Virus record (IMG/VR): IMGVR_UViG_3300031992_000018
Location: 64,001 to 128,000 of that record
Length of the DNA stretch: 64,000 bases
Origin: a virus
Lineage: Duplodnaviria; Caudoviricetes
Reading direction: 5' to 3' (one strand)
The notes beneath the pieces were generated by a model. That model had not been told where the DNA came from and did not search any database. It saw nothing but the letters and a program-made list of their open reading frames with translations. Every line of letters begins with the position of its first letter. The stretch's first letter is position 1. The translations under genes were made by a program, and so were the position numbers. This document shows positions 4,886 through 59,196 of this stretch, one piece after another.

Positions 4886-5266
4886 ATGAAAACATTAGTA
4901 CAATATATTAAAGAAAGTAAAGACGGTAAAATATTATATAATGATATATTTAATAAATTATATAAATACCTTTTGAAATCTAATAAAGAAAATAAGAAAG
5001 GATATTCTGATAAAGAAATAGATGATTATTTTCATCAAGATTTAAACTCAGATTCATTTAAAGAAAATGAAAATAAAGTTGTTAAAGAATTATTTGAAGA
5101 ATATCCAGACATGGATTGGAGTACCAAATCCCAATTAATGGAATATATTAAAAGAAATAATAATGCTCTTTGTGCAAAAGAATTAATCGGTACAGCACTT
5201 TATCAGGCATTTGTAAAATTTGTTTATATTCATATTCAACATATAAAATATGAAGGACATGTTTAA
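4886..5266 (+). CDS. putative head-internal protein with CTS-like leader
   Basis: Starts MKTLVQYIKE; lies between the gp4- and gp2-like genes. Confidence 0.6.
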   Translation: MKTLVQYIKESKDGKILYNDIFNKLYKYLLKSNKENKKGYSDKEIDDYFHQDLNSDSFKENENKVVKELFEEYPDMDWSTKSQLMEYIKRNNNALCAKELIGTALYQAFVKFVYIHIQHIKYEGHV

Positions 5267-5287
5267 ATAATTCTATATTATATATAT

Positions 5288-5986
5288 ATGGCACCATTTA
5301 AAAGACCTATAAAGAAAAAAGAAGAACAAGAAGAATTATCAAGAACCACGATAGTTAATTCAAGAAGAAACTTACGTGATTTAGATACTCATATATATAC
5401 ACCAGATGAAATTGAAAATTTCAGATTAGATGAGGCAATAAATAATAATCCATTATCACATAGACCAACTAATATTAGAAGTAAATTAGCTTATGCTGAA
5501 GTAATGAAACAATTAAAACCAACTTCTAAATATTTACTTCCAGGACAACTTGTTATTTTTGAATATCTTGAACCAAAATTTAAAGAAGATCTAGAATATT
5601 ATGACAGAACACCTTTTACTCTTTTCTTTGGTATAACAAGAACAGATGATGGTAATATTCGTGAAATTGGACTTAATCTTCATTATTATCCACCTCATAC
5701 AAGAGCAAGAATATTAAGAAAAACTTATCAAGTATTTAAACCATATTTTGATAAATATTTCAATGATCCATCACATAAACCAAATGCTATTATTTCATAT
5801 TCATCATTAAAACATTTAATGAAAGTAAATGATAAGATTGGTTTTGGTGTTAAGATGTATATTCCTGTTCTTAGAGGAAGAAGTTATGTTGTTCCTCCAA
5901 GACTTTGGCCAACTGCATTTTATACAGAAGGACACTTTAGTAAAGCTACATTACAACAGATATTTAGTTTCTGGAGACAGTTTTAA
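5288..5986 (+). CDS. DNA end protector protein, T4 gp2-like
   Basis: PGQLVIFEY.EPK.K..LEYYD..P...GLNLHYYP...R motif. Confidence 0.8.
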   Translation: MAPFKRPIKKKEEQEELSRTTIVNSRRNLRDLDTHIYTPDEIENFRLDEAINNNPLSHRPTNIRSKLAYAEVMKQLKPTSKYLLPGQLVIFEYLEPKFKEDLEYYDRTPFTLFFGITRTDDGNIREIGLNLHYYPPHTRARILRKTYQVFKPYFDKYFNDPSHKPNAIISYSSLKHLMKVNDKIGFGVKMYIPVLRGRSYVVPPRLWPTAFYTEGHFSKATLQQIFSFWRQF

Positions 5987-6042
5987 TTGAATTGATTAAA
6001 ATATAGATTCTATATTAATTAATAAATATAGAATCTTTTTTT

Positions 6043-6912
6043 ATGAGAGATTGTGTAATAGTAATTCCAGTATATAAACCTACTCTTGATTGTGTAGAAG
6101 AAATTTCTTTAAAACAACTACATAAAATTATTTATAATCCACCATTTCATATGGATGATTATAGAGATTGGGAAGAAAGAGATGTATTTCTTGTTTATCC
6201 TCAAGGAATGGATATAAGTGAATATAAAAAAATATATCCTTCTCTTAAAGAAAAAACATTTGATCCTGAATATTTTAAATCAACAGCAACATATTCACAA
6301 TTATGTATATCATATGATTTTTATAAATCATTTGATTGGTATGATTATATGTTGATATATCAACTTGACTGTTATCTTTTTAAAGATGAAATTAGTAAAT
6401 GGTGTAAAAAAGGATATGATTATGTTGGTGGTCCTATTCTTTCTACTGATTGTGGATGGAATACAATAAAAGAATCACAAAAAGGTAAGAAGTGGACTCC
6501 TTATGTTGGTAATGGTGGATTTAGCCTTAGAAAAATATCTACATTTAAAGAACTTACAGATCCTCTTGGTGAATTTAGAATAAGATATAATTTAACAGAT
6601 GATAAATTAAAGAATGTATTATTTGAAGATAAATACTTCTGTAATGATATTTATAACTTATATGAATTAGATGTACCTTCTTGGAAAGAAGCTCTTGAAT
6701 TTGGTTTAGATATGTCTGTAGATATTGTATATAATTATCTTAAATGGACTGGTGAACCTATGGGTATTCATTCTGTTGATAAGAATATCAGATGGTGGAA
6801 AAAAATAATTCCTGAGTTTATGGATCAAAAAGTCATAGATTATTGTGAAGAAAAACATAAAGAATTCTTTAAGTTATATTATGATGAAAATGATTCAACA
6901 TTAAGACAATAA
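6043..6912 (+). CDS. DUF5672 glycosyltransferase-like protein
   Basis: VIPVYK, YMLIYQLD, YDYVGGP, VGNGGFSLR, ED.YF motifs. Confidence 0.75.
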   Translation: MRDCVIVIPVYKPTLDCVEEISLKQLHKIIYNPPFHMDDYRDWEERDVFLVYPQGMDISEYKKIYPSLKEKTFDPEYFKSTATYSQLCISYDFYKSFDWYDYMLIYQLDCYLFKDEISKWCKKGYDYVGGPILSTDCGWNTIKESQKGKKWTPYVGNGGFSLRKISTFKELTDPLGEFRIRYNLTDDKLKNVLFEDKYFCNDIYNLYELDVPSWKEALEFGLDMSVDIVYNYLKWTGEPMGIHSVDKNIRWWKKIIPEFMDQKVIDYCEEKHKEFFKLYYDENDSTLRQ

Positions 6913-6971: not shown

Positions 6972-8003
6972 ATGAAGAAATTTTCAGATATATTTAACGA
7001 ATCTTGTGTAACAAGTGATGTAAATCAAGGTAATTCATTATCACTTGGTGTAAGTAATCATTATACACCTGTTCAGAATATTGTAACTAATGTTAGAAAT
7101 TTATTTTCTATCATAGTTCCTGTTGTTGCATCTGTTGCAGAAGATGGTGTATCAGTTAAATTAAATTCTAGTAAATTTGTAAATAAAGAAGAAATTAATA
7201 AATTACTTTATCAACCAGTATATCAATCACAATCTTTATATTCATTCATTGCTTCACAAGGACTTGATCTTGTTAAGATGGTAAATCTTGGCATGTATTT
7301 TGTTGTATATTTCTGCCCAAGAGATATTAAACAAGCAGCTCCTGGTCTTGAAGCAAATCCAGCTTCAGCTCCAGTAAAAGAACAATTCCAAGAAGAAGTT
7401 GAAATGTTTAACTTTATCAAAGAAAGTGAAGATGATGAAGAATTAAAAGATTTGACTAAAGAAAAACTCAAAGAAATTCTTGATATGAAGGATAAAGTAA
7501 AAGCTGCTAAGCAGATGGAATTACTTATTTCTAGTGAAGTAGAACTTCCAAGAGAATATTATTTTGCTGGTGTTAAAGATAAACAAGGAAATGAATCAAT
7601 TGCACTTAGATGGAAATATACAGTAAAGAGACCAAAGGGAATGAGTGCTGAAATTACAAGAAGCCTTATTAATATTTATGGTGTTGATAAAGATGGTGTA
7701 TGGGTAGGAGATTTTGATGAAGATAGTATGTTCCAACTTCCTGATGAAGTAAAGAAACTTATTGAAACAGTTCTTGATTATATTGGTGCCGAAAAAACAG
7801 ATGATCCATGTGTATATGATTTATCCGGAGAAAATAAAAAAGATAAAGAAGATAAAGAGGATAAAGATGATGAAGAAACAAAGGATAATTCTAACAAAAA
7901 TGATGGAAATAAAGAAAAAGAAAGAGAAGAAAGCAAAAAAGAAAATGATGAAGATGTAGAAGATGATAAATCTCGTGATGAAGCTGATGATTTATTAAAA
8001 TAA
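6972..8003 (+). CDS. putative virion protein with CTS-like leader and charged disordered C-terminus
   Basis: MKKFSDIFNE start; D/E/K-rich tail. Confidence 0.6.
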   Translation: MKKFSDIFNESCVTSDVNQGNSLSLGVSNHYTPVQNIVTNVRNLFSIIVPVVASVAEDGVSVKLNSSKFVNKEEINKLLYQPVYQSQSLYSFIASQGLDLVKMVNLGMYFVVYFCPRDIKQAAPGLEANPASAPVKEQFQEEVEMFNFIKESEDDEELKDLTKEKLKEILDMKDKVKAAKQMELLISSEVELPREYYFAGVKDKQGNESIALRWKYTVKRPKGMSAEITRSLINIYGVDKDGVWVGDFDEDSMFQLPDEVKKLIETVLDYIGAEKTDDPCVYDLSGENKKDKEDKEDKDDEETKDNSNKNDGNKEKEREESKKENDEDVEDDKSRDEADDLLK

Positions 8004-8021: not shown

Positions 8022-8261
8022 ATGAAAAATATAGTAGAATATATTAGTGAAAAGTTTAATGATATAAAATCTAAAGAAGTAAATGAACAAGATGACACTG
8101 TTTGGGTACTTAGAGATAAAGATTTAGATGGTGCAATTTTTGATGTATGTGATACAGAAGAAGATGCTAACCGTTTAAAAGAAATGAAACTTAAAGAAAA
8201 TCCTGATGCAAATTTTGAAGTAGTAACAGGAAAAAGAAGTGAATTTGTAAAAGAAAATTAA
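8022..8261 (+). CDS. putative head-internal protein with CTS-like leader
   Basis: MKNIVEYISE start, second VNE site. Confidence 0.65.
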   Translation: MKNIVEYISEKFNDIKSKEVNEQDDTVWVLRDKDLDGAIFDVCDTEEDANRLKEMKLKENPDANFEVVTGKRSEFVKEN

Positions 8262-8274: not shown

Positions 8275-8565
8275 ATGAAAAATTTAACAGAATATTTAAC
8301 AGAATCATCATCTATTAATGAAGCATGGAATTCAAAATGGGATGATGTATTAGATTATCTTTTAGATGATATGGATCCAGAAGAATTAGAATCAATGAAA
8401 GAAGATGATCCTGGTGAACTTTTTGATTGGATGCAAGGACAACTTGAAGATAGTGATGATTCAACAGCAAGAAGTTTTGCTAAAGCATTATCTAAGAATG
8501 ATCCAGCTGTTATTAAACATATTCAAGATAAAGTTGATGAAATTTTAGCTGATTATGATGAATAA
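8275..8565 (+). CDS. putative head-internal protein with CTS-like leader, very acidic
   Basis: MKNLTEYLTE...INE start; D/E-rich mature part. Confidence 0.65.
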   Translation: MKNLTEYLTESSSINEAWNSKWDDVLDYLLDDMDPEELESMKEDDPGELFDWMQGQLEDSDDSTARSFAKALSKNDPAVIKHIQDKVDEILADYDE

Positions 8566-40479: not shown

Positions 40480-40481
40480 TT

Positions 40482-42046: not shown

Positions 42047-42078
42047 TATATGTATAATATATTATTATATATAAAAAT

Positions 42079-42108: not shown

Positions 42109-42127
42109 CTATTTATATTTTAGTAAA

Positions 42128-43405: not shown

Positions 43406-43499
43406 AGTTTTAATATATTTGGTATATTTATAGAATTTGTAGATTAATTCTACTTTTTATATATAATAATAAAATAATTTTAAAATGTATGATTATTTA

Positions 43500-43721
43500 T
43501 TATATTTTTGTTTTAATATCTTTAATGTCACCAATTTTAATAACAATTGTATTTTCACTACATTTTGCTATTTCCCAATCATCAATTTGATTCCATTCAT
43601 CAAAATCATCATCATCTGGTCTATGCCAAAAGAATTTACCTCTTAAATCAACTTCTAAAATATATCCTTTACCATTATTATTTATATTTTCATTTAAAAG
43701 GAGTTCAACTAAATTTTTCAT
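43500..43721 (-). CDS. putative head-internal protein with CTS-like leader
   Basis: MKNLVELLLNE. Confidence 0.6.
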   Translation of the reverse strand: MKNLVELLLNENINNNGKGYILEVDLRGKFFWHRPDDDDFDEWNQIDDWEIAKCSENTIVIKIGDIKDIKTKI

Positions 43722-43745
43722 AATTATATTATATATTTATTTATT

Positions 43746-44033
43746 TTATACTTTCCAACCAACTGATGTACCAACAGCAGTAAGTATAAGTCTTGATGTA
43801 AATAAACTTCCAAGAGGACCAGTTTCGTTAATACCAAGAGCCTTACAAATTGCTTTCATAACTTTAGGGCCAAATGTAGCACCAGTAATACCACCAACTA
43901 TAGATCCTATAATTCCTTCTTCAATTGGAATATTATTTTCTTTAGCCTCTTGAAGTTTAGCAATTACATTATCATAAGTTAATTCCTCTGTAATAGGAGT
44001 TTCAGTATTTATAAAATCTTCTAATTTTTTCAT
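43746..44033 (-). CDS. CTS-like leader protein with Gly-zipper hydrophobic C-terminal half
   Basis: MKKLEDFINTE..ITEE...IEEGIIGSIVGGITGATFG. Confidence 0.65.
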   Translation of the reverse strand: MKKLEDFINTETPITEELTYDNVIAKLQEAKENNIPIEEGIIGSIVGGITGATFGPKVMKAICKALGINETGPLGSLFTSRLILTAVGTSVGWKV

Positions 44034-44038
44034 ATTAA

Positions 44039-44467
44039 TTATTTAATGATTTTATCTATATCAAAATCAAATTCATCTTTATTATCAACTAAATTCTTTA
44101 TAATTTCATCTTTTGTTCCTATAAAAACTTGATTATCTTCTTCAGAATTTCCAGCAATAGCATTTAATCCAGGACGATAAAAAATATAACTTGTTTCATC
44201 ATATATATTTTTAAAAATTAAATCACCAACCTTAGGTTTATTATTACCTTTATCAGCAAAATAATTACTATTATCATATATAAAGTATTCTTCAATAAAT
44301 TCTTTCATAGAAGAACCTTCTTTAAAATCATCATTTGTTAATATATGATAAGGTTCAATCTCTTTAATTAATTTATTTAATTTACTTTGTGCATTGATTT
44401 CTTTATAATCAATTATATAATATATATCTTTTTTTGTTTCTAAAATATAATCTTTTAAACTTTTCAT
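44039..44467 (-). CDS. putative head-internal protein with CTS-like leader
   Basis: MKSLKDYILE. Confidence 0.65.
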   Translation of the reverse strand: MKSLKDYILETKKDIYYIIDYKEINAQSKLNKLIKEIEPYHILTNDDFKEGSSMKEFIEEYFIYDNSNYFADKGNNKPKVGDLIFKNIYDETSYIFYRPGLNAIAGNSEEDNQVFIGTKDEIIKNLVDNKDEFDFDIDKIIK

Positions 44468-44487
44468 ATTAATTATTTAATAATTTT

Positions 44488-45258
44488 TTATAGTTTTTTA
44501 CCAAGATTATTTATTGGATGAGGAAATTCATTTTTCTTTGCAAGTTCTTCTAAATCTTTTTCATACTTCTCTTTTTCAAAAACAATTGTAAATAAGAAAG
44601 TATAAAGATCATCAAGATTATCAATAGCAACATCAAGTACTTGAGCCCAAGTAATTTCTTTTCTCTTTTCAAGTTTAGTTAAAGTATCTGCTGCATTAAG
44701 TAAAGAATTTTTTATAGAACATTCTTTACCATTAGTACCCATATGTTTAATAGCAAATAATTGAATATCACCATTAGCTCTTAATAAAAGTACAGGTTCT
44801 GATAATTTTTCATCTTTACATATAGATAATATATCATTTCTTAATTTAGGACTCATACACATATTTCCCATATTAGAACATGGTTCATAAAATACAAGTG
44901 GTTCTGAATTGCTTCTTTGATATTCATCATTGAATCTGCATTTATAACTAAATTCTCCATGTGCATTATATAAATCCATTACTTTAGGATAACCTGAAAA
45001 AATCTGTGTATATTTTGTAACAGGATCTAATGGAGTACATGAACTAGGTTCTAAAGTATTTGCACATGGAACGCAAGGATCAACAGTACATGATGCTTCA
45101 CCAGGAATATCACATCCATAAGAGCAACCATCATCACAACATCCACAACATTCAGTTATTTCATATCCTTCAAGATTAGAAAGTTTTTCTACAATATTCT
45201 TATCTAATCCCTTTAAACATATATATTGATTATTTATATATTCAGATAATTTTTTCAT
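44488..45258 (-). CDS. CTS-like leader protein with Cys-rich segment
   Basis: MKKLSEYINN...ITECCGCCDDGCSYGC... Confidence 0.65.
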   Translation of the reverse strand: MKKLSEYINNQYICLKGLDKNIVEKLSNLEGYEITECCGCCDDGCSYGCDIPGEASCTVDPCVPCANTLEPSSCTPLDPVTKYTQIFSGYPKVMDLYNAHGEFSYKCRFNDEYQRSNSEPLVFYEPCSNMGNMCMSPKLRNDILSICKDEKLSEPVLLLRANGDIQLFAIKHMGTNGKECSIKNSLLNAADTLTKLEKRKEITWAQVLDVAIDNLDDLYTFLFTIVFEKEKYEKDLEELAKKNEFPHPINNLGKKL

Positions 45259-45312
45259 ATCTTAATATTATATAATTTTCTATTAAACTTTAGAAAATGT
45301 AGTAATTCTAAT

Positions 45313-45660
45313 TTATTTTACTAATTCTAATACTTTAGCTATAACCTTTTTAAAGATTTCACCAGCCTTTTCAGGTTCATTTTTAAATAATTGTAAACAA
45401 ACTGCACTATGATAAGCATCATATATTTTATTATTTATTTCTTTATCCCATTTTGGAGATTCAAAATAAACATCTAAAGCATTCATAGCTACATCATGAA
45501 TCTTATTTACATCATCATTATTTTTAACATCTAAATCTTTAACATCATCATATTGAGATGATAATTCATTAACCGATATTGCTTTATTTTCATTTATATT
45601 AAAATCAATATCAATTGTATTTGCACTTGCATTGTTTAAATATTCATTTAAGCTTTTCAT
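45313..45660 (-). CDS. putative head-internal protein with CTS-like leader
   Basis: MKSLNEYLNN...NINE. Confidence 0.65.
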   Translation of the reverse strand: MKSLNEYLNNASANTIDIDFNINENKAISVNELSSQYDDVKDLDVKNNDDVNKIHDVAMNALDVYFESPKWDKEINNKIYDAYHSAVCLQLFKNEPEKAGEIFKKVIAKVLELVK

Positions 45661-45677: not shown

Positions 45678-45890
45678 TTAATCAAAATATCCACAAGCAT
45701 CCATTTCATCATAAAGTTCTTCTAAAGTTTTGTCTGTAAATGTATCCCACAAAAGATTTAAAATTTCTTCTGTATCTAATTTAGAAAAAGCTTTATTCAT
45801 TTTTTCTTTATAATTATCTCTTTCTGATTGAGACCATTCATTAATTACTTGTTCATCAGTATGATTTAAATATTCATTTAAGTTTTTCAT
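45678..45890 (-). CDS. putative head-internal protein with CTS-like leader, acidic
   Basis: MKNLNEYLNH...VINE. Confidence 0.65.
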   Translation of the reverse strand: MKNLNEYLNHTDEQVINEWSQSERDNYKEKMNKAFSKLDTEEILNLLWDTFTDKTLEELYDEMDACGYFD

Positions 45891-45936
45891 ATCTTTATAT
45901 TATTTATTTATATAATTTTCCATTGAGTTTCATAAA

Positions 45937-46416
45937 TTAATCCCAAGCGGCATCATCATATTCTTTTGTTCTTCTTATATTTTTATAACCATTATCAGTA
46001 TATGAAAGTTTAGTATAAAGATTATTTATTAATTCATAAATAAATCCATAAGGTTTTCCAGGATCTTTTCTTTCAGAACATTGATACTGCCAACTGTCTA
46101 GCCATTTTAATATTTGTACCTCTGAAACTTTTTCTTTAGGTTCAGAATATTTAAATGTAGATTTTGCTGCTTCTGATTTTCCATATCTATAACTTATTGC
46201 ACGACGATTACAATTATATAAATCATTTGCAATTGTTTGTTCATCTGCATCATCATACCATTTTATGTATGTTTTAGTAATTTTTGAAAGTAAATCAGAT
46301 TTATTTATAAATAAGTCATGAATATATTTTGCTAATTGATTAATTACTTCATCACTTTCCATAAATGCAGATTCATTAATGAGTGATTCATTTAAATATT
46401 CATTTAAGTTTTTCAT
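45937..46416 (-). CDS. putative head-internal protein with CTS-like leader
   Basis: MKNLNEYLNESLINE; mature part has LY..N..A...RY and YQCSE motifs. Confidence 0.7.
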   Translation of the reverse strand: MKNLNEYLNESLINESAFMESDEVINQLAKYIHDLFINKSDLLSKITKTYIKWYDDADEQTIANDLYNCNRRAISYRYGKSEAAKSTFKYSEPKEKVSEVQILKWLDSWQYQCSERKDPGKPYGFIYELINNLYTKLSYTDNGYKNIRRTKEYDDAAWD

Positions 46417-47613: not shown

Positions 47614-47704
47614 TATATTATATAATCTAATTAAATAAAAATAAAATCTTTTGAATTATATTATCAAAATTATCTATAATACATTATCTAAATTAATTAA
47701 TAAA

Positions 47705-48725: not shown

Positions 48726-48740
48726 AAACCTCTCTTTTTT
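48712..48740. terminator. bidirectional terminator
   Basis: aaaaagagaggt-aaaa-acctctctttttt. Confidence 0.8.
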
Positions 48741-49152
48741 ATTTTAGTAATTTATTAAATTCTGATTTAGAAACTTTAGTAAAATTATCAAAATTTTGTG
48801 CCCAATCATAACAAACCTTTTCATAATTATCACCTGTTAAATCTCCACCTTCTAAAGAAAATGTAAAAGATTTAACATTATCAATAAATACATCCATATC
48901 TTCCCATGAACCTTCACCAAATCCAACTTCGCCATCATATTTATCTAAATATGTATGTAATTTACCAACAATTTCTTGTCCTTTTAATTTACCAAAATTA
49001 AAAATAATTACAGCATCACGCATTGTAACATAATAACATGTATCAGGCCAGTCATAAGTATCTGTATTTTTTAACCATTTATTTATAAATTCAAATACTT
49101 CTTTTTCAGATAATGTTTTTGCTTCTAATAAAAATTCTACTAGATTTTTCAT
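48739..49152 (-). CDS. putative head-internal protein with CTS-like leader
   Basis: MKNLVEFLLE. Confidence 0.7.
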   Translation of the reverse strand: MKNLVEFLLEAKTLSEKEVFEFINKWLKNTDTYDWPDTCYYVTMRDAVIIFNFGKLKGQEIVGKLHTYLDKYDGEVGFGEGSWEDMDVFIDNVKSFTFSLEGGDLTGDNYEKVCYDWAQNFDNFTKVSKSEFNKLLK

Positions 49153-49560: not shown

Positions 49561-49570
49561 ATTATATATA

Positions 49571-51079
49571 TTAATATTTATGTCCTCCTCTTGCATATTG
49601 AAGTCTCATTTGTTCTTCAATCATTGATTCTGCATCTTCATCAGTAAAATCAGGATCATCATCACAAGCAGTAAATATCTTTGCACAAAGAACAAATGTT
49701 CTTAATGATAATTCCATACTTGATCCTTTTTCATTTAATTCTTTTAAATAATTATAAGCCTTTATTTTTGCTTTAGGCAATAATATTTTATTTTCAATAT
49801 TTGGAAGTAATTTCTTTATAATTGATAAAATCTCATCATTTGAAAAATCAATATCTTGCATAAAACATCTATTTCTTAAAGCTGTATCAAGTTGTCCTGC
49901 ACGATAATTTGTTATAACAATAACACCAGATTTAATTCTACATTTCTTTGGAATTTCTTGACCGTCATCATCAGTAATTTTACCAGCAATTCCATAAGTA
50001 ACAAGTCTTCCTTCTGGAGATGTATCTGAATCAAGAGCTGCTTTAAGAATATTGATACAGTTTTCATCTGCTTGTGGACCTACAAGAGAGTCAGCATCAT
50101 CAATTAAAATAATATCATTACTTTCTCTAAATCCATAAAGAGTAGCATAAAGTCTTCTTGCTGTACATTTGCCTTTTATAGTACAAAGATTTTCTCCTTC
50201 AATATAATTAGATTCTTTAAGTTGTTTCTTTACTCTATATGTTTTACCAACACCAGGAGCTCCACAAAGAATAAGTGCTGGTTGACGACCTTTAATAACT
50301 AAAGAAATATATTTTTCCATTTCTTTAAATATCTGGTCAGGATCTTTTCTATTACTTTGAGCATCTTTAATTTCCTTAGAATCTTCAATTTCAACTCTTT
50401 TACCTTTAGCAATTGATACTTTAATATCTTCTGAACCACCTTCTTTTATATATTTATAAATATCTTTAACATCATTTTCGATATTATTTAAATTAGAGTT
50501 TGAAATTTTACTCTTAGCAATAAATGATTCATGAATTAAATCTTTATCAATTTTAGAAAAAATATAATTTAATTTACCAATATTATATTTAGATTCTTTT
50601 AAATTATCTTCTTTATTAGATAATTTTTTAACATCTTCTTCACTAATAGAATATTTTTTAGAATTTACTATTGTCCATACTACTGGTAATAATTTAGCTA
50701 TATTTGTACCTAAAGTATAAATAGATAAATCTGCTTTTCCTTTACCAGACCAATATACATCTAAATCTTTAAAAAAGTCTATAGAATATACATCTACAGA
50801 ATCATTATCATTAATCCAATTAAATTGAAAAAATGAAGTTTTAGCATAATCTGATTTATCAATAACAATAAATTGTTTTGATGTACATTTTTCACCATCA
50901 ATTGTAGTATCTACAAAACCAATAAGAGGAACAAGACCATTGATATGCTTCTTTAAAATTGATTCAATTTTTTCAATAGCCGCATCAATATCTTTTTCTC
51001 TAAATGATTCATTTAATTTTTCTTTATTTTGTATATCTTGATTACGCTTATTTACGAATTCTAAAAAATTATATCTCAT
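49571..51079 (-). CDS. AAA+ ATPase with N-terminal extension
   Basis: Walker A GAPGVGKT, Walker B ILIDDAD, ITN, ALRNR arginine finger; leader MRYNFLEFVN...LNES. Confidence 0.85.
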   Translation of the reverse strand: MRYNFLEFVNKRNQDIQNKEKLNESFREKDIDAAIEKIESILKKHINGLVPLIGFVDTTIDGEKCTSKQFIVIDKSDYAKTSFFQFNWINDNDSVDVYSIDFFKDLDVYWSGKGKADLSIYTLGTNIAKLLPVVWTIVNSKKYSISEEDVKKLSNKEDNLKESKYNIGKLNYIFSKIDKDLIHESFIAKSKISNSNLNNIENDVKDIYKYIKEGGSEDIKVSIAKGKRVEIEDSKEIKDAQSNRKDPDQIFKEMEKYISLVIKGRQPALILCGAPGVGKTYRVKKQLKESNYIEGENLCTIKGKCTARRLYATLYGFRESNDIILIDDADSLVGPQADENCINILKAALDSDTSPEGRLVTYGIAGKITDDDGQEIPKKCRIKSGVIVITNYRAGQLDTALRNRCFMQDIDFSNDEILSIIKKLLPNIENKILLPKAKIKAYNYLKELNEKGSSMELSLRTFVLCAKIFTACDDDPDFTDEDAESMIEEQMRLQYARGGHKY

Positions 51080-51115
51080 AAATTATAATATTAATTATAT
51101 ATAAAAATAAAATTA

Positions 51116-52810
51116 TTAAATCCATATAATTGTTATAGGATCTATCTTTATAAATGAATTTTTATTTGGTTTATCTGTATAATAGTTAAATCCTCCTCCA
51201 AGTATTGGAATTTCTAATTTTGAATTTAATGATATATTTCCATAATTGTCAAGTCCTGGATTTGTATCACTTTCATAATATATCTTTTTATTTACTAAGT
51301 TATATTGACCATTTATATATTCAAAATTAGAAGTATAATAAAATCCTCTATAAAATGTTTCTTCACTAAGTTCTGATATTATATCTATATCAAATGATTC
51401 AATATCATCATGACAAAGAGAACCAATATTAATTAAATCACTCTTAGCAATAAATTTTGAATCCTCTTTCAAATTCATAAAATAATTACCTAATACAGAT
51501 TTTATAGAATCTTCAATATCTTGTTTAGAATATTGTGATTTTGTTTTAACATAACACATAATAGCAAATCTTCTAATTTCAGGATCTTGGAATTTAAGTG
51601 TTATACCAGCAAATGATTTATTTGAATTCTTAAGAGTATTTTGAATCATTAATTTTTGGTCATTTGTAATTAAAATACCTTGATTATTATTTGCTTTATT
51701 AGTTAATTTATAGTATTCATCTATAGAAGATATATTATTTATTATATTAGATATACATGTAGCATATATAGTCATACTATTTTCTTCACTCCAACAATTT
51801 ACATATCCAACAAATGAGAATCTTTTAAAGAATAATTTAAAGTTTTGTTCAGAAGCAATGACATTACTTCTAGAATTATATCCAATCATATTTCTTACAA
51901 AATCAATTGAATCAGAATTTGTACCACCAGAAATTACTGTATTAAGATTAAGTAATAAATAGTCATCTAAGTTAACTGTATTTCCTTCTGAATCATATCC
52001 ATTATCAACAAATGAAAATTTAGGATTATCACCATATAAAATATTTCCTATAGTTCCTGAATGTGATAAATATAATATTTGTACTACATCACCAGGATTT
52101 GGAATTTTACCATATATACCATTACCAAATATTATATCAAATGTATTTTCATATCCAACAGTAAGAACATATTCTTTACTGTCTTTTGACATATCATATA
52201 AACTTGAAACAGGTTCCCATTCTTCTCCATTTACAAATACTCTTATATAATCTCTGTCAAAAAGACCAGATGATTCAATAGATATTCTTTCAAGAGGTTC
52301 ACCAATACAACCATATTGATAATTATTCCATGTTCCTTGTACAATTTTAAATTCATGAGATGTAAGTGGTTGCTTTGTATAAATTATATATCTATTTGAA
52401 TTCAATATAACAACATAGTTTACACCAGTATTCTTATTGATTATTCTTGTATAATTATTAATATAAATTTTATCAATATCAAGATATGAACCATTATTCA
52501 TTATAACTTTACCAATAATACTTCCACTTGCAGCTGATCCATAATATGGTTCATAACCACTGATTTTAGCTAATGAATAAATACTTTTTCTTCTTGTAGC
52601 AGTTCTGACATTTTGTTCTGTAAGAGCATCTTCAATATAGAACATAGCATTTTGCATGATACCTTTAATACCATCAAAGATAACACCAAAAATTTGGTTA
52701 TGAGTATATTGATAACCAATTGAATTAAATGTTTTTGAAAGATATAGTCTTACTGTTTCATCAAACTGATCATAAGCAGTTTGCATTACTGAAAATAATT
52801 TATTAGCCAT
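51116..52810 (-). CDS. baseplate wedge protein, T4 gp6-like
   Basis: TA.RRKSIYSLAKISGYEP, VQG, IRVFVNGEEW, IIFGNGIYGKIP..G..V...YL...G..GN, GG...DSI. Confidence 0.85.
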   Translation of the reverse strand: MANKLFSVMQTAYDQFDETVRLYLSKTFNSIGYQYTHNQIFGVIFDGIKGIMQNAMFYIEDALTEQNVRTATRRKSIYSLAKISGYEPYYGSAASGSIIGKVIMNNGSYLDIDKIYINNYTRIINKNTGVNYVVILNSNRYIIYTKQPLTSHEFKIVQGTWNNYQYGCIGEPLERISIESSGLFDRDYIRVFVNGEEWEPVSSLYDMSKDSKEYVLTVGYENTFDIIFGNGIYGKIPNPGDVVQILYLSHSGTIGNILYGDNPKFSFVDNGYDSEGNTVNLDDYLLLNLNTVISGGTNSDSIDFVRNMIGYNSRSNVIASEQNFKLFFKRFSFVGYVNCWSEENSMTIYATCISNIINNISSIDEYYKLTNKANNNQGILITNDQKLMIQNTLKNSNKSFAGITLKFQDPEIRRFAIMCYVKTKSQYSKQDIEDSIKSVLGNYFMNLKEDSKFIAKSDLINIGSLCHDDIESFDIDIISELSEETFYRGFYYTSNFEYINGQYNLVNKKIYYESDTNPGLDNYGNISLNSKLEIPILGGGFNYYTDKPNKNSFIKIDPITIIWI

Positions 52811-52816
52811 ATTATA

Positions 52817-53170
52817 TTATTGATATTGATATTCTCTTATTTTTGTTTCTCCAGATTCTTTATCTACTAAAGCAATCTTTATTAAATAAATACTTCTATA
52901 ATCACCTTGAAGAAATGTAGCATTTACATAATATTCCATCTTAGATGCATAATATGTAAGTGTATCTATTTTTTCTCTTATATATTTTTCAATTTCAGAT
53001 GTAGTTGGAGTAAGTGTCCATAAAAATGATTCAAATTCTGTACCATATTGTGGATATCCAATTAATTGTGTATTTTCTGTATTAAGAAGCATATCTATTT
53101 CTTGAAGTGCACAATCTACTTCATTATCTAAAAATACTCTTCCATCTAAAGCTAAATCTAACATAATCAA
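52817..53170 (-). CDS. baseplate protein, T4 gp25-like
   Basis: QEIDMLLNT......G.P.YG......LW; adjacent to the gp6-like gene. Confidence 0.7.
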   Translation of the reverse strand: MIMLDLALDGRVFLDNEVDCALQEIDMLLNTENTQLIGYPQYGTEFESFLWTLTPTTSEIEKYIREKIDTLTYYASKMEYYVNATFLQGDYRSIYLIKIALVDKESGETKIREYQYQ

Positions 53171-53172
53171 AA

Positions 53173-54996
53173 TTAATTTATATTATAATTTCCATCAGAA
53201 ATATAATCATTGTTTTCATTTACAATGGTATATTTTCCATATAAATTGTTTATATCTGATGAATTTATTGAAAAAATTACATATATATCATTTCTTCCTA
53301 TTTCAATATATTCTTGTTGTTCAATAATCAATTTAAATGTTTCTACTTTTGATAAATATTCACTTAAATCAATACCAATATTCTGAGTAAATCCATTTCT
53401 TAAACTGATATTTTGTAATTCAGATGTTTTATAAAATATTGGTTTATATATTACTCTTGGAGTACTTGATTTTTTAATACTTATATTATTATCATTTTCT
53501 GATGATTTTAAAATTGAACAATTTATTTTATCAATAAATACAAGATTATCTTTATTTATTTCTGTTACTAACATATTTGTTTTATTGTTTAATTTATATA
53601 TCTTATTAAATGTTAATTTATGTATAGATAAATCATTTATTAAATATTTATACCATTCTTTAGATAATATAACTGGATTAGAACGTATAATATTACAATT
53701 TACTTTATCGATAAATGATATTCTATATACAATTAATTCAGGAATATCATCCCAAGTATCAAAAATATCTGCTAATGGTAACATCATATTATCAATTATA
53801 GAATCATTTAAATTGCTACATGATTTATAAAATACTTCATTAAAATATTTATCTGTACTAAATTCTATTAAAAATCCTGTTTTATTTATATTTTCTAAAT
53901 CTTCACCAAATAAATCATTATCTTCTTCTTTATTATTTTCATAATTTATATATTCATTTTTAGTAATATTATTGAAAAATAAATATGATTCTTCTAAAGT
54001 TTTATTATCATAATCTGGATATGAAAATTCATTTACAATAAAAGGAATTCCATAATATTTATTATATAATGTTTGTGATTCAAACTCTTCTTCTTTTAAA
54101 AATTTTATTTTACTTTTTAAAGAGAATGAAACATTTATATTAAATGTATTAGAGTTTTGTAAATTATCAAGATCTTGAACATACATATTATTACTATCAA
54201 CATCAATATATGGTGTTAATATAATATTCAATGTATTATAAAATTGATTATTGATATAATTTATTTTATTATCAAAAATCTTCTTATAAGATACACTACC
54301 ATTTTCTTTAATATCAGATTCAATACTATATGGATAATATAATAAATAAAATGGTACTAAAGAAGTATATTCATTATCATTATTCTTTAAATTAAATTTT
54401 TCTTGAGTATTTCTATTTATACATTCATTATAATCTTCTATATAAATATCTTTATCATATAAAAGTAATTTTAAACAAGGTATATATAATTCTATATATT
54501 CTGAATATGTTATATTATTTATTACTAATTCAGTATTAGATAATCTTGGATAATTTTTACTTAAATCAACTAAATAATGAAATTTTATATCATTTATATA
54601 ATTTTCAATATCTATTATACTATTTAATGTTGTATAAATAGTTGGTATATATATTCTTATTTTATCACACAATATTTCTGTCTCATTAAAACTTGAATTA
54701 TATATCTTATACTTATTATATTCTATATTATCTCTTTTTATCTTATCATTAAAATTTGATGGATCTGTTGAATATCCAAGAGATGTTCCATTTGGAATAG
54801 GGAAACAAGAAATATTTTTATTTGACTCAGGAATAAAAAATATATCTTTATCTACAAAGATACCAGATATAAAGTTTTGATTTTTTAATATGTAAAACTT
54901 TTCATAATGATGCAAATCATTTTTTAAATCAGTCATCGCATCAAAATAATCAATAATATAAGTATAATTACCTAATATTACTTTTTCTCTTATCAT
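53173..54996 (-). CDS. hypothetical (probable baseplate-region structural) protein
   Basis: 607 aa, co-oriented with gp25/gp6, late motif 32 nt upstream. Confidence 0.55.
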   Translation of the reverse strand: MIREKVILGNYTYIIDYFDAMTDLKNDLHHYEKFYILKNQNFISGIFVDKDIFFIPESNKNISCFPIPNGTSLGYSTDPSNFNDKIKRDNIEYNKYKIYNSSFNETEILCDKIRIYIPTIYTTLNSIIDIENYINDIKFHYLVDLSKNYPRLSNTELVINNITYSEYIELYIPCLKLLLYDKDIYIEDYNECINRNTQEKFNLKNNDNEYTSLVPFYLLYYPYSIESDIKENGSVSYKKIFDNKINYINNQFYNTLNIILTPYIDVDSNNMYVQDLDNLQNSNTFNINVSFSLKSKIKFLKEEEFESQTLYNKYYGIPFIVNEFSYPDYDNKTLEESYLFFNNITKNEYINYENNKEEDNDLFGEDLENINKTGFLIEFSTDKYFNEVFYKSCSNLNDSIIDNMMLPLADIFDTWDDIPELIVYRISFIDKVNCNIIRSNPVILSKEWYKYLINDLSIHKLTFNKIYKLNNKTNMLVTEINKDNLVFIDKINCSILKSSENDNNISIKKSSTPRVIYKPIFYKTSELQNISLRNGFTQNIGIDLSEYLSKVETFKLIIEQQEYIEIGRNDIYVIFSINSSDINNLYGKYTIVNENNDYISDGNYNIN

Positions 54997-55093
54997 AAAT
55001 TTTACATACTTAATTTAATTAAAAATAAAAATCTACTATAAAAGTTTAAAGATTTGAATGTTATTTTTATATATAAATAGATAATACTAAGAA

Positions 55094-55936
55094 ATGAAAA
55101 CATTTTCAAATTACATTGATAATATAAAATTAATTGATGAAATTTGTTCTTATGAATATAGTGATGTAGTTCTTGAAGGAATATTAAAGAAAATAGCTAA
55201 TTGGTTTGGTAATAAATCAAGAAATATATCTAATAAATTAAATAATTTTTATGATGAATTATATTATTTTCCAGATAATGTAATAAAGACATTTAATGGA
55301 ACATTATCAATTGCAGCAGATGAAACTAATGATTCACAAGAAAATAAAGATATTATAAATAACATTATTAATGATAAACCAGAAAATATACCAGAAAAAG
55401 TTATAAATTATCTTAAAGAACATGAAAATGATAAAGATTTTTATAATTCAATACTTATTGCTTCATTATGTGTATTAGGTATAAATGTAGCAAATGAAAA
55501 TAAAGATCAAAAATCAGTAGATACTATAAAATTATATTTTAATAAAATTAGTGATAAAATAAAGGAAGATACTAAAGATATTTTAAAAAAATCTACAAAT
55601 AATCCAGATAATAATGATAATGATAATGATAATAATCCTTCAGAAGATCTTACTAAAAAAGTTGATGATGTAGTACAAAATGTAGTAGATGATAATCCAG
55701 ATATAGATATTAATAAAGAAAAAGAAAGAGAATTAATAGAAACAATAACTTGGATGATTTTTTATAAATATAATAAAAATAATATGAATTCAGACGAAAT
55801 TGAAGATAATGCCAAGAGACTTGCTAATATATTAATAAATGAATTAGAATTAGATGATGATTTAAAACAGAAATTTAATATAACTTCATTAGATGATTTA
55901 AAACAGAAAATTGAAGATTATAAAAACAATAAATAA
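55094..55936 (+). CDS. CTS-like leader protein
   Basis: MKTFSNYIDN...LIDE...VLEGILKKIANWFG; late motif at 55061. Confidence 0.6.
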   Translation: MKTFSNYIDNIKLIDEICSYEYSDVVLEGILKKIANWFGNKSRNISNKLNNFYDELYYFPDNVIKTFNGTLSIAADETNDSQENKDIINNIINDKPENIPEKVINYLKEHENDKDFYNSILIASLCVLGINVANENKDQKSVDTIKLYFNKISDKIKEDTKDILKKSTNNPDNNDNDNDNNPSEDLTKKVDDVVQNVVDDNPDIDINKEKERELIETITWMIFYKYNKNNMNSDEIEDNAKRLANILINELELDDDLKQKFNITSLDDLKQKIEDYKNNK

Positions 55937-56392: not shown

Positions 56393-56734
56393 TTATTTAT
56401 TTTTAAATTCTATGTCATGTATATATATTGTTGTAAGATCATCTTCATCAAAGGTTATAAAAAAACTATCTATATAATCATTATCAAAAAATTTCTTTTT
56501 TATCTCTTTAATACAACTATGTAAAAAAGATGATGATTTTTCTTTTTTAAATTTTATATATAACCATTTATCATCATCTATAATAAATGTATAATCATCA
56601 TCTTTATATAAAAATTCTCCATCAAAATAAGATTCTAGATCAAATAATAGTTTATCCATATTATCTGATTTTACATTTATATTTTTATTAAGATGTAATT
56701 TTTCTGTTATATATTGACTTAAATTATTCATCAT
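56393..56734 (-). CDS. putative head-internal protein, EKLHLNK leader subfamily
   Basis: MMNNLSQYITEKLHLNKNIN. Confidence 0.7.
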   Translation of the reverse strand: MMNNLSQYITEKLHLNKNINVKSDNMDKLLFDLESYFDGEFLYKDDDYTFIIDDDKWLYIKFKKEKSSSFLHSCIKEIKKKFFDNDYIDSFFITFDEDDLTTIYIHDIEFKNK

Positions 56735-56798
56735 TAAAATTTTTCTTTATACAATTAAAAATAATTTTATTTTTATTTAATTATATAACACAGTATTT

Positions 56799-57485
56799 AT
56801 GAAAACAATTAATGAATATATTAGATTTTCAGTTAATAATATAAACTATAATATTATTGACGAAGCATTAGCTCTTGAATCAGAAGGATGGACAATGCAA
56901 GATGTTTATGAGACATTATTTATAACTGATATTTATGATAATGATCAATTAAATGAAGGTTGGATTGGTGATAAACTTAGAAAATTAGCTGGTGCGGCTG
57001 ATACTGCAGAAGATAAAGCAAAAGAAACAATAAATAAAACAAAAGAAGGTATTAAAAATGCTAAAGATGCAGTTGTTGCAAAATTTGATGAATGGTCAAA
57101 TGAAGCAAAAGAAGCATTCAATAATTTAAAGAAATGGGCCGGAAGTAAATGGGATAAAGTTAAAAAAGATATAACTGAAATAATTGGAAAAATTGAAGCA
57201 GCATTTAATAAAATAAAAGATACAATAAAAAATATTGTTGTTTCTATTGGTAAACTTAGTAAAGATATTGTTTTAACAACAGTAGGTCTTTTAATTTTAT
57301 TAGTAAAACAAATAATAGCATTGATTGATAAAGGTTCAGATTTAGTTATGAAATTATTTAATGATGCAAAATTATTTGCTGGTAATGCAATATTTAATTT
57401 AGGTGCTGTTGCCGCTAAGAAAGCTGGTTTATCTCAAGAAGAATTAACAAATGTTTTAACTTTAACATTTTCTTATGCAAAATAA
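56799..57485 (+). CDS. CTS-like leader protein, amphipathic helical
   Basis: MKTINEYI...IIDE...LNEGWIGDKLRKLAG; A/K/E-rich helices, hydrophobic C-terminal part. Confidence 0.6.
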   Translation: MKTINEYIRFSVNNINYNIIDEALALESEGWTMQDVYETLFITDIYDNDQLNEGWIGDKLRKLAGAADTAEDKAKETINKTKEGIKNAKDAVVAKFDEWSNEAKEAFNNLKKWAGSKWDKVKKDITEIIGKIEAAFNKIKDTIKNIVVSIGKLSKDIVLTTVGLLILLVKQIIALIDKGSDLVMKLFNDAKLFAGNAIFNLGAVAAKKAGLSQEELTNVLTLTFSYAK

Positions 57486-57503
57486 TTTAAATATTATAAA
57501 TAT

Positions 57504-57536
57504 AAAAAAGAGCTCTTTTTAAAGAGCTCTTTTTTT
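57504..57536. terminator. bidirectional terminator
   Basis: aaaaaagagctcttt-tt-aaagagctctttttt. Confidence 0.85.
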
Positions 57537-59196
57537 ATTTTTCTTCTCTACTATGTTTATTGTATTCTGATGAATGAAATTCTTCTTCAAAAGTATGTTT
57601 AGCACCAGGATTAATCATATAAGCCATTTTTGCCATTATATCTCTATTAAGAAGAACTGGTGTTGATTTCTTTCTATTATCAACAAGAGCAAAATCTACA
57701 TTAAGTAATTTTCTTGAACCAATCTGAATACAAGGTACTATTACAGTAACTCTTTCTTCACGTACTTGTCCAACTATAGGGTTTGAAACCCCACTTTTCT
57801 TAAATCTATATGTTTTACCATTTATAACTGCTGATACTTTATCTCCAACTACTTCAACTGATTCACAACCAATTGTAGAAGCTTTAGCGCCATTACCTGT
57901 ATCAAATTTAGCTTCAAGTTCAAATTCTGAATCATTATCCATAATAAACTTCATATTTTCAATATAACCAATTGATTTAGGTGCAAGTACAAGCTCATTA
58001 ATATCATTGATTGCATCAAGAAGTATCTTACAGAAATTTTCTCCAATTACTTCAGAAATACCTTCTGTACCTGGAGAGCAGTTATATTCAAGAACAACAT
58101 TATCTCCAATCTCTGGATTAGAACCTTTTACAAGAGGCATAATATCAACAGCACACCAAGGCATACCTGAAATCTTTGCTACATTTAATGCAATATCTTC
58201 TTGTTCTTTAGTAATTTCAACTTTTTCAGCTTCTGCACCAAGAGATACATTACTTCTGAAATCACCACCAAGTTTCTTTCTCTTCATACATGCAAGAATT
58301 GTTTGTTTTGTTCTGCTTGTAAGAACATGCACTCTGATATCACCACCATCAGCTTCTTCTTTCTTTTGAAGAAGTAATTCTCTTTCAGGGTCAATAGCAA
58401 ATATTGCTTGAAGAATTGCAAGAATACCTTTACCTGTTGTCATGAATACACCTGTTCCACCATGACCATCAAGAATCTTTACAACATATTCTCTCTTTTC
58501 ATCTTCTTCTTTATTTTCACCTACTTCTTTATAAATAAGTTTAAGTTTCTTCTGAAGAGATTCTTCACCTTTAGATACATCTTTTGAAGAAAGAAGACAG
58601 AATTTTGGTTGTGGAATATCATATCTTTTCATAAGAACAGCTGAAGCATATTTATTACTTGCTCTTTTAGCTGCTTGAATTGGATTAAGAACAAAAAGAC
58701 CCCAATCTTGAAGTTCTTTAATACATTCCATACATTCTTCACTATCTTGTGCACCAAGACGTGCAATAACTATTGTATCTATATTTGATTGATCTGTTAT
58801 AGTAAATTTCTCTTTAGAATCTTTAATTTCAATTTTCTTATCATCTGCACTATAATCAACTTCTTCAGAAACAAATGTTATAAGATTTACATCTGTATTT
58901 TTAAGTGCATCTTGAAGGTTTTTAAGAGTTTTATTTTTTGAAGCATCTCTTTCATTTGTAAAGAAGATAATATTCTTAAAGAAATATTCTTCATTTCTTT
59001 TTATTTTTTCAGCATTCTGTACAGTATCATTTTTTGCACCTAATTGTTCAGCTGCTTGATCAACTGCTTGGTCTTCTGAACCAGGTTTTTCTGGATTTTT
59101 TTCTGCACCAGTATTTTCTTCTGCTTCTAAAATAGATTCTACTTCATCTATTGATTTAATAAATTTTGATTCTAAAAGTTCAGTTAAAGTTTTCAT
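57535..59196 (-). CDS. RimK-like ATP-grasp ligase fused to a retropepsin-like (RimB/Zn_protease family) domain, with CTS-like leader
   Basis: VVKILDGHGGTGV, DIRV, DFRSNVSLGA, AVDI, LEYNCSPG; C-terminal AKFDTGNG...LLNR; leader MKTLTELLE. Confidence 0.85.
   Translation of the reverse strand: MKTLTELLESKFIKSIDEVESILEAEENTGAEKNPEKPGSEDQAVDQAAEQLGAKNDTVQNAEKIKRNEEYFFKNIIFFTNERDASKNKTLKNLQDALKNTDVNLITFVSEEVDYSADDKKIEIKDSKEKFTITDQSNIDTIVIARLGAQDSEECMECIKELQDWGLFVLNPIQAAKRASNKYASAVLMKRYDIPQPKFCLLSSKDVSKGEESLQKKLKLIYKEVGENKEEDEKREYVVKILDGHGGTGVFMTTGKGILAILQAIFAIDPERELLLQKKEEADGGDIRVHVLTSRTKQTILACMKRKKLGGDFRSNVSLGAEAEKVEITKEQEDIALNVAKISGMPWCAVDIMPLVKGSNPEIGDNVVLEYNCSPGTEGISEVIGENFCKILLDAINDINELVLAPKSIGYIENMKFIMDNDSEFELEAKFDTGNGAKASTIGCESVEVVGDKVSAVINGKTYRFKKSGVSNPIVGQVREERVTVIVPCIQIGSRKLLNVDFALVDNRKKSTPVLLNRDIMAKMAYMINPGAKHTFEEEFHSSEYNKHSREEK

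Follow-up and report, generated by a model that had tools for sequence, protein, structure and literature searches.

We found that 36 of the 212 predicted genes on a 168-kb phage contig, about one gene in six, begin with the same 10-residue N-terminal leader, M-K-x-[LI]-x-x-[YF]-[IL]-x-E. We consider it likely, with a probability of roughly 0.6, that this leader is the clade's version of the T4 capsid-targeting sequence (CTS) and that the tagged proteins are clipped, packaged in the head and injected. Because the tag closely resembles the T4 head-loading label, the leader proteins probably travel in the virion and reach the host along with the DNA, and by sequence the system is a probable, greatly expanded variant of the known T4-type system. 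To our knowledge, no documented case comes near a tag on 15–17% of all genes, which counts against the T4-type reading. The phages of this clade are uncultured megaphages that apparently infect Bacteroidota.

A shared leader restricted to gene starts

We scored the 212 predicted N-termini of the whole contig with a position matrix covering residues 2–12. The scores were bimodal, with about 36 N-termini at 7 or above and the next best at 0.7; the median leave-one-out score was 16.3. None of 780 internal Met windows reached a score of 4. We also scanned all six frames for ATGs that open a run of 50 or more codons; of 1031 such ATGs, 35 scored at least 8, and all 35 were called gene starts. Besides the start Met, the most conserved columns are 2, 4, 7, 8 and 10. 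All 34 seed leaders have L, I or F at position 4 and Y, F or L at position 7, and substitutions are conservative in the protein (L/I/F at 4, Y/F at 7, I/L at 8). An [LIVFM]-x-E site with its E at residue 10 is found in 105 of 121 leaders from six contigs, and all 121 contain such a site within 24 residues; five leader genes in the window lack this E at 10 and have the site further along.

Extending the leader scan to the whole genome and to relatives, as the initial annotation had suggested, we found 8 to 33 leaders per contig in five related IMG/VR contigs, two of which have 34–35% GC, and leaders on 78 of 500 genes in a 410-kb relative. Because these two relatives carry the leader at such GC content, it is not an AT-rich codon effect, the trivial explanation that had been raised at the outset; the lack of matching internal Met windows speaks against it as well.

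Leader genes in the window

The window is the whole stretch of 64,000 nucleotides that was analysed (positions 64,001 to 128,000 of IMG/VR record IMGVR_UViG_3300031992_000018). Its candidate leader genes and their neighbours are as follows, with promoters assigned to the structural type described below where this is stated:

4886..5266, + strand: leader gene, 126 aa, MKTLVQYIKE/S, in a unit with a structural-type promoter
6972..8003, + strand: doubtful leader, 343 aa, MKKFSDIFNE/S, no aromatic residue at position 7, matrix score -0.9
8022..8261, + strand: leader gene, 79 aa, no Pfam family
8275..8565, + strand: leader gene, 96 aa, no Pfam family
41159..42046, - strand: leader plus EKLHLNK extension, 295 aa, DUF285 repeat protein (Pfam 398.5 bits, cut-off 25) with nine 72-nt repeats; structural-type promoter 42072-42080
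43500..43721, - strand: leader gene, 73 aa, E at position 11, no Pfam family
43746..44033, - strand: leader gene, 95 aa, E at position 11, no Pfam family
44039..44467, - strand: leader gene, 142 aa, no Pfam family
44488..45258, - strand: leader gene, 256 aa, no E at 10, first [LI]-x-E at 22-24, no family found
45313..45660, - strand: leader gene, 115 aa, first [LI]-x-E at 22-24; start-junction DNA repeated in neighbours
45678..45890, - strand: leader gene, 70 aa, first [LI]-x-E at 16-18
45937..46416, - strand: leader gene, 159 aa
46839..47273, - strand: leader plus KLHLNK extension, 144 aa
47281..47613, - strand: leader gene, 110 aa, first after structural-type promoter 47636-47644
48739..49152, - strand: leader gene, 137 aa
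49174..49560, - strand: leader plus EKLHLNK extension, 128 aa, start at 49560
49571..51079, - strand: AAA ATPase (Pfam AAA), 502 aa, weak and shifted leader likeness; structural-type promoter 51102-51110
51116..54996, - strand: baseplate operon (607, 115 and 564 aa; phrog_219 baseplate wedge) without leaders, directly upstream of leader genes; structural-type promoter 55020-55028
55094..55936, + strand: leader gene, 280 aa, no E at 10; structural-type promoter 55061-55069
56393..56731, - strand: leader plus EKLHLNK extension, 112 aa; promoter 56756-56764
56799..57485, + strand: leader gene, 228 aa, coiled-coil-like body, no E at 10; promoter 56767-56775
57535..59196, - strand: RimK-like ATP-grasp protein, 553 aa, weaker leader MKTLTELLE/S; promoter 59224-59232

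All 21 N-termini listed by the initial annotation are present in the sequence at their coordinates and on their strands. Most of the start positions stand as well; 49560 is an internal ATG of ORF 49174-49596, and 56731 and 56734 differ by one Met. Nineteen of the 21 proteins truly share the leader, and the likeness is weak in the other two. One is the 343-aa protein starting at 6972, whose ortholog in the related contig G006 retains only [IF]-x-E at residues 8–10. The other is the AAA ATPase starting at 51079 (MRYNFLEFVN), where the likeness is also shifted, so its listing as a leader protein does not hold. The protein starting at 59196, previously called a RimK-protease, is a RimK/ATP-grasp protein (Pfam RimK, 73.7 bits) that matches no protease family in Pfam or PHROGs. 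Its leader has L in place of Y at position 7, and its G006 ortholog is 66% identical and lacks the leader.

Likeness to the T4 capsid-targeting sequence

The T4 CTS reads MKTYQEFIAE in the T4 record. We built a matrix from the contig's leaders alone and ran it over 1580 T4 ATG-ORFs, of which gp24 came third, IPIII fourth, IPII fifth and IPI eighth. The top scorer was gp61.1, annotated as hypothetical and encoded beside the primase gene. We know of no evidence that gp61.1 is packaged and, because it is T4's top match, the motif alone does not prove packaging. In T4, residues 4 and 7 serve targeting and residues 8 and 10 processing, and gp21 cuts after L/I-x-E (PMC9026906). The conserved columns of the leader coincide with these targeting and processing positions, which, together with the recovery of gp24 and IPI–III, bears out the initial description of the leader as T4-like.

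The likeness to IPI, IPII, IPIII and the gp24 propeptide covers a 10-residue leader, M-K-x-h-x-E-aromatic-I-x-E, ending in [LI]-x-E. T-even internal proteins are highly diverse behind a conserved CTS (PMC3012670), and unrelated, fast-changing bodies likewise follow the leader here. A gp21-family protease and a gp23-type capsid protein are also shared, here in relatives within the clade. There are clear differences. T4 has only a handful of tagged genes, whereas the leader occurs at the gene counts given above here and in the 410-kb relative; position 7 is Phe in T4 and Tyr here; half of the leaders here carry an extra conserved K-L-H-L-N-K-D; the protease of this clade is fused to a repeat-bearing scaffold; and the cargo is mostly acidic. 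Unlike that of T4, the present system is predicted from sequence.

Head genes in related contigs

The studied contig is about 59% complete, and no protease or capsid gene was found on it, so the link to a head protease runs through relatives. Its portal and terminase are 68% and 57% identical to those of G006, and by sequence it belongs to the leader-bearing clade of that contig. The leader-bearing relatives G001, G002, G005 and G006 encode a protease-scaffold fusion and a Gp23-family capsid protein (104 bits). The fusion matches Pfam S77 at 36.5 bits (cut-off 27), and its best PDB match is T4 gp21 (5JBL), with the GELEHP and SSRGAGS motifs aligned; the scaffold part contains 7–9 tandem 12-residue repeats containing A-P-E. 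At the same position in G006, we found an ORF whose N-terminus matches the G001 protease-scaffold. In relatives, the protease-scaffold, major capsid protein (MCP), sheath and tube genes have leader arrays immediately upstream in the same orientation, and a leader protein of about 148 aa comes after the portal gene in both the studied contig and G006. The leader persists down to 62% MCP identity, where the upstream DNA differs. All homologues found are metagenomic, and this leader was not found in the cultured relatives PTm1, PAU and MA9V-2; both points count against the T4-type reading.

Promoter classes and putative cargo

The portal, baseplate and fibre-like genes of the contig have the motif TTATTTTTAWNTATA 30–35 nt ahead of their ATG. 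In G001, the MCP, sheath, tube and protease genes are preceded by a similar motif, TTATTTTTA(A/T). Of the leader genes, 28 fell in units with the structural-type promoter and 4 in units with the other class (Fisher's test, p = 1e-10). The refuting outcome named in the initial annotation, a leader equally common on early or metabolic genes, was thus not observed. Judged by promoter motif, leader genes would be co-expressed with head genes. The earlier statement that metabolic genes lack the leader does not hold strictly: a PNK-like kinase bears the leader behind a non-structural promoter class, which we count against the T4-type reading, and in relatives the leader occurs on HAD phosphatase-like and nucleotidyltransferase-like proteins identified by motif only. 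The kinase and ATP-grasp leader proteins were identified by Pfam.

As initially claimed, the bodies behind the leaders are mutually unrelated by blastp, save for one three-member DUF285 family. The 121 leaders precede bodies in 92 clusters, and few leader proteins have orthologs between relatives. A Pfam search of the small leader proteins, which the initial annotation had put forward as candidate anti-defence proteins, returned no family for any of them. The cargo is acidic (median pI 4.9), which also counts against the T4-type reading. Further points against it are that some orthologs lose E10, as in a kinase sub-clade with YKLTG, or the whole leader, as in the RimK-like protein of G006.

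Under the T4-type reading, leader proteins would be made from the promoter class that also drives virion genes. The N-terminal amphipathic helix, hydrophobic at position 4 and aromatic at position 7, would bind the prohead scaffolding core, and the scaffold-fused gp21-family (S77) prohead protease would remove it after [IL]-x-E at residue 10. Once matured, the proteins would remain inside the head and pass into the host together with the DNA. Among this putative cargo would be many small ORFans, along with DUF285 repeat proteins and several enzymes acting on nucleotides or RNA ends, and the gene arrays may grow and change via recombination at a 35–70-nt leader junction.

An extended helix beyond the presumed cut

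In 63 of the 121 leaders, the sequence runs on past the presumed cut into a conserved K-L-H-L-N-K-D, placing Lys at P1'. This segment also occurs internally, without Met, in two-module proteins and, in G006, behind another leader. A simple T4 model explains neither the extension nor these placements. Residues 2–17 are predicted as a single helix, with AlphaFold pLDDT values for the leader helix of 49 in the kinase and 65/53 in a DUF285 protein, against more than 90 for the bodies. The Pfam domain of the kinase begins at residue 16, and its bacterial homologues begin at the first strand, without a leader. In these models, the leader is a low-confidence helix added before otherwise complete domains.

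The extension, the Lys at P1', the single predicted helix and the internal and second-leader copies would all suit an unclipped address or docking tag for another late structure or partner, with the 17-residue EKLHLNKD-type helix as its functional unit. Candidate targets are the outside of the capsid, the tail or fibres, a chaperone and the neighbouring AAA ATPase. The DUF285 cargo fits as well, as these are repeat proteins with about 50 paralogs in G006, and bacterial DUF285 repeat proteins are surface proteins; the loss of E10 in some orthologs points the same way. We nevertheless think an unclipped tag unlikely, given that there is a position-by-position match between the first ten residues and the T4 propeptides, that E10 is retained in most leaders (the 105 of 121 above), and that many tagged proteins are cytoplasmic-type enzymes with no obvious virion-surface use. 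A rather doubtful proposal is an address in two parts, in which the ten T4-type residues are clipped and the 17-residue helix docks hundreds of cargo families onto the 7–9 12-residue scaffold repeats. If true, this would be a programmable, high-capacity protein delivery system occupying about 15% of genes and delivering, among others, enzymes of RNA-end-repair type together with DUF285 paralogs as a bulk filling.

Shared DNA at the start junction

Neighbouring leader genes share 35–70 nt across the start, upstream non-coding bases included, with identity reaching 88%. Two spacers also contain a duplicated 3' end of the DUF4494 gene. Such sharing might mean that the common start is mainly a genetic joint, an RBS-region spacer plus ten codons serving as a recombination or expression cassette that lets new genes plug into late operons, with a minor role for the peptide. 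Also in favour of a joint, AT-rich codons dominate, and at position 4 TTA is favoured over CTT by 23 to 2 (genome-wide 54% and 37%). This account is improbable, however: substitutions are conservative in the protein, codons at conserved columns otherwise follow genome-wide usage, the motif persists at 34–35% GC and at 62% MCP identity despite different upstream DNA, and late structural genes behind the same promoter class lack it. A joint function would in any case be compatible with targeting. Very improbable is a RiPP-like recognition sequence through which one maturase other than the head protease modifies or processes many substrates: clade genomes do contain radical-SAM genes, but these are single and mostly far from leader arrays (the exception is a 172-aa G006 gene with two DUF285 leader genes about 1 kb away), the studied contig has none above cut-off, the arrays were not seen to be accompanied by any other enzyme, and the tag matches the T4 protease motif.

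Comparison with head-loaded proteins of other phages

In the giant phages phiKZ, 201phi2-1 and SPN3US, a diverged gp21 homologue cuts after Glu in tens of head proteins, paralogous families among them (PMC9026906). Like these, the T4-type reading concerns large phages with many different head-loaded proteins, with packaging here deduced from sequence. The phiKZ-type sites are S/A-x-E at varied distances from the N-terminus, with no common 10-residue leader, whereas here P3 is I or L, the site is fixed at residue 10 and the head module is T4-like. With I or L at P3, a phiKZ-type S/A/G-x-E cleavage motif in the leaders was ruled out. Phage P1 packages anti-restriction Dar proteins in its head, including the large DarB, and loads them through a Dar hierarchy; it is not known to use a common N-terminal tag for this. 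The shared feature would be that the head brings enzymes along to the next host; a possible counterpart on the studied contig is a 1331-aa protein with a weak leader and a structural-type promoter, in which an SF2 helicase domain (ResIII) is the one part confirmed.

A shared N-terminal leader in unrelated proteins

The window forms bases 64001-128000 of a linear IMG/VR viral contig of 168,026 bp with a GC content of about 25%; the contig is judged to be about 59% complete, and gene calling over it gave 212 genes. The initial annotation had claimed that about 21 unrelated proteins of the window share a T4-like capsid-targeting leader. All 21 N-termini are present where it placed them, and 19 hold up as leaders, M-K-x-[LI]-x-x-[YF]-[IL]-x-E; those of a 343-aa protein (6972) and an AAA ATPase (51079) are weak. 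A RimK-like protein carries a weaker form of the leader. To score the motif, we applied a matrix spanning residues 2-12 to the 212 N-termini of the contig. The scores were bimodal, with about 36 N-termini at 7 or more and the remainder at 0.7 or less, and the leave-one-out median was 16.3. None of 780 internal Met windows in the contig reached a score of 4, and among 1031 ATGs in any frame with at least 50 open codons, the 35 scoring 8 or more were all gene starts. Codon usage in the conserved columns was near genome-wide usage. The bimodal scores, the lack of matching internal windows and the presence of the leader in 35%-GC relatives rule out an artefact of AT bias or codon choice. Besides the start Met, the best-conserved columns are 2, 4, 7, 8 and 10, and residue 10 is the E of [LIVFM]-x-E in 105 of the 121 leaders from six contigs.

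The bodies behind these leaders ("cargo") are diverse: the 121 leader ORFs fall into 92 body clusters, and within our contig blastp ruled out body paralogy save for three DUF285 genes. Larger cargoes include DUF285 repeats, a RimK-type ATP-grasp protein and two kinases, one Zeta-toxin-like and one AAA_33/PNK-like. Pfam gave no family for 20 small cargoes, the protein atlas returned nothing for two larger ones, and a homologue search with a 112-aa cargo of the extended-leader type (leader plus K-L-H-L-N-K-D) found near-identical orthologs only. Few cargoes are common to relatives. The leader is an addition to the body behind it. Bacterial homologues of the kinase start at the first strand, while its phage orthologs, at identities as low as about 57%, have an 11-residue extension. 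AlphaFold modelled the kinase as a short leader helix (pLDDT 49) followed by a confident body, and a DUF285 protein as a single helix at residues 2-17 (pLDDT 65/53) with the body after it at 92-99. Across the alignment this DUF285 segment hardly varies despite its low pLDDT, a combination that fits a partner-binding peptide.

Resemblance to the T4 capsid-targeting sequence

We scanned 1580 T4 ATG-ORFs with a matrix built from the leaders of this phage only. T4 gp24 ranked third, IPIII and IPII (both starting MKTYQEFIAE) fourth and fifth, and IPI eighth. By hypergeometric arithmetic, these four proteins would all reach the top eight by chance with a probability of about 3 × 10−10. The top match was the uncharacterised gp61.1, a 54-aa hypothetical protein adjoining the primase gene (NC_000866 18966-19130, minus strand), whose N-terminus, MKTFKEFIKE, is a close copy of the internal-protein leader; we know of no evidence that gp61.1 is packaged. 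In the T4 capsid-targeting sequence, residues 4 and 7 are the main ones for targeting and 8 and 10 for processing, with gp21 cutting after L/I-x-E (PMC9026906). All four positions are among the best-conserved leader columns of this phage. The likeliest mechanism, at about 0.6, is that the leader acts as a prohead-targeting propeptide of the T4 type, whose use has greatly expanded in a clade of uncultured phages of 250-435 kb.

Distribution among relatives and metagenomes

The contig has a T4 gp20-like portal (phrog_213) and a recognisable large terminase. By portal, its nearest named phages, all below 40% identity, are the Sphingomonas PAU, Tenacibaculum PTm1 and Chryseobacterium MA9V phages and the Lak megaphages. 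Its lipoprotein signal peptides are of Bacteroidota style and Shine-Dalgarno sequences are lacking, features that suggest a host in the Bacteroidota. Nucleotide and protein searches against phages gave no match to the cargo array, nor to either of two large late proteins. To retrieve relatives from IMG/VR, we back-translated the extended form (Y-I-x-E-K-L-H-L-N-K) into a search pattern, which yielded five related contigs with 8-33 leader ORFs each, two of them at 34-35% GC. One relative, G006 (410 kb, 97% complete), carries the leader on 78 of 500 genes; it has 68 proteins in common with our contig, including a portal at 68% identity, which places the contig within this clade. Run over 1.84 billion representatives, a profile of the extended leader matched 620 clusters (50% identity) at E ≤ 0.001. 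Nearly all matches begin at residue 1; among the 149 listed matches examined the median length was 143 aa, and all members examined were metagenomic. The pattern was not found in PTm1, PAU, MA9V-2, Lak-A1, LR756500 or T4, and a literature search on the EKLHLNK motif gave no match.

G006 has about 50 DUF285 paralogs, 150-300 aa long, that all open with M-K-K-L-N-Q-F-I-T-E-K-F-R-L-S-K-D-N; three of them have a second leader in front (M-K-x-L-N-H-Y-I-S-E-A-E-R...).

G006 contig 124-127, 200-202, 231-257, 266-272 and 291-296 kb (stretches L100-L108): DUF285 paralogs

Head genes and promoter classes

No protease or capsid gene was found in the contig, where the sole match (12.9 bits) was at chance level. 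Leader-carrying relatives encode a protease-scaffold fusion of 576-583 aa.

L037:8558-10303 (a stretch of the relative G001): protease-scaffold fusion
L039:10051-11802: protease-scaffold fusion
L038:8423-10153: protease-scaffold fusion

Its protease part matches Pfam S77 at 36.5 bits (cut-off 27), and the best PDB match is T4 gp21 (5JBL), with His and Ser motifs aligned. The scaffold part is a coiled-coil with 7-9 tandem 12-residue repeats, approximately Q-N-W-V-C-E-E-F-A-P-E-V, whose copy number varies between relatives; these repeats could be cargo-docking or cleavage units. A complex prediction for the G001 fusion with a 63-aa leader protein, run without controls, scored 0.00 and speaks neither for nor against binding. 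The relatives also encode a Gp23-family capsid protein with I-H-E-I-H-E|S in its conserved N-terminal region, reminiscent of the T4 gp23 site, L-T-E|A. In G006, leader genes form an array of about 18 kb immediately upstream of the protease-scaffold, MCP, sheath and tube genes and in the same orientation; G001 has the same arrangement, and in two further relatives, G007 and G014, strict-pattern matches cluster near MCP genes. In our contig and in G006 alike, the portal gene is followed by one for a leader protein about 148 aa long.

Two classes of promoter-like upstream motif occur across the contig. The first, TTATTTTTAWNTATA, lies 30-35 nt before the ATG, with 27 of 46 core matches in the intergenic 6% of the contig, and precedes the portal gene, the baseplate operon, fibre-like genes, large late proteins and leader genes.

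Window 42072-42080, minus strand: TTATTTTTAWNTATA example
Window 55061-55069, plus strand: TTATTTTTAWNTATA example

In G001, a similar motif, TTATTTTTA(A/T), precedes the MCP, sheath, tube and protease genes. The second class, TTCTATATTA, is usually 3' of a terminator hairpin and precedes nucleotide-metabolism genes and small plus-strand genes. Assigned by unit, the TTATTTTTAWNTATA class comprises 28 leader and 44 other genes and the TTCTATATTA class 4 and 122 (p = 1 × 10−10). PHROGs gave almost no annotation for the large late operon at contig 45-59 kb, so that operon is labelled "structural" from its size and context. Structural genes behind TTATTTTTAWNTATA do not carry the leader, which is thus not a general feature of late genes.

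Alternative readings and implications

Part of the tag may instead be a docking helix that is never clipped. This reading stays open given several misfits: K-L-H-L-N-K-D continues past the presumed cut in 63 of 121 leaders, this segment is internal without a Met in some two-module proteins, and in G006 it stands behind a first leader; E10 is lost in one kinase sub-clade; the G006 RimK ortholog lacks the leader; the PNK-like kinase sits behind the non-structural promoter class; and the cargo proteins are acidic. A leader for radical-SAM maturases was rejected, as radical-SAM genes show no consistent neighbourhood with leader arrays.

If the propeptide works as in T4, its head-loading rule would extend to very distant T4-type megaphages, with dozens of cargo proteins per genome and at least 620 metagenome protein clusters for one leader type. 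The tag would then offer a sequence-only route to listing the proteins with which a phage enters the cell at the very start of infection, the stage at which one expects anti-defence and takeover functions. A candidate use is as a short portable tag to load foreign proteins into such capsids.

Array evolution and further observations

Adjacent leader genes have 35-70 nt in common across the start, non-coding bases included. A DUF4494 gene without a leader lies within the array.

Window 46425-46826, minus strand: DUF4494 gene

Its last 29 nt recur in the spacer 45908-45936 (97% identity) and, in degenerate form, at 45268-45296. These repeats fit recombination at the leader junction as a process shaping the arrays.

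A 1331-aa SF2 helicase protein (L001:1263-5258), with ResIII as the sole domain confirmed, combines a weak leader (MMSIFSYINE) with a structural-type promoter and may be analogous to anti-restriction proteins that are packaged in the head, P1 DarB being one. In G001, a 271-aa ORF (L037:16339-17154) with a nucleotidyltransferase-like N-terminal part has a complete leader, M-K-S-I-N-E-Y-I-V-N-E, at residue 192; it may be a single cargo of two modules or else a pair of genes read as one.

A different N-terminal motif, approximately M-S-K-L-G-Y-I-x-N-S-Y-G-K-Q-F-N-I-G-I-S-N-T, recurs in four fibre-like proteins (320-1432 aa) and probably serves several receptor-binding proteins as a common module for attachment.

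Contig 31171-45193 (L002:11171-20000 and L003:1-5193): four fibre-like proteins

Four adjacent paralogs starting M-K-x-Q-I-R-x-x-x-F-E-T-N-S-S (L006:2466-5186, contig 150466-153186) form a small gene family in a non-structural region.
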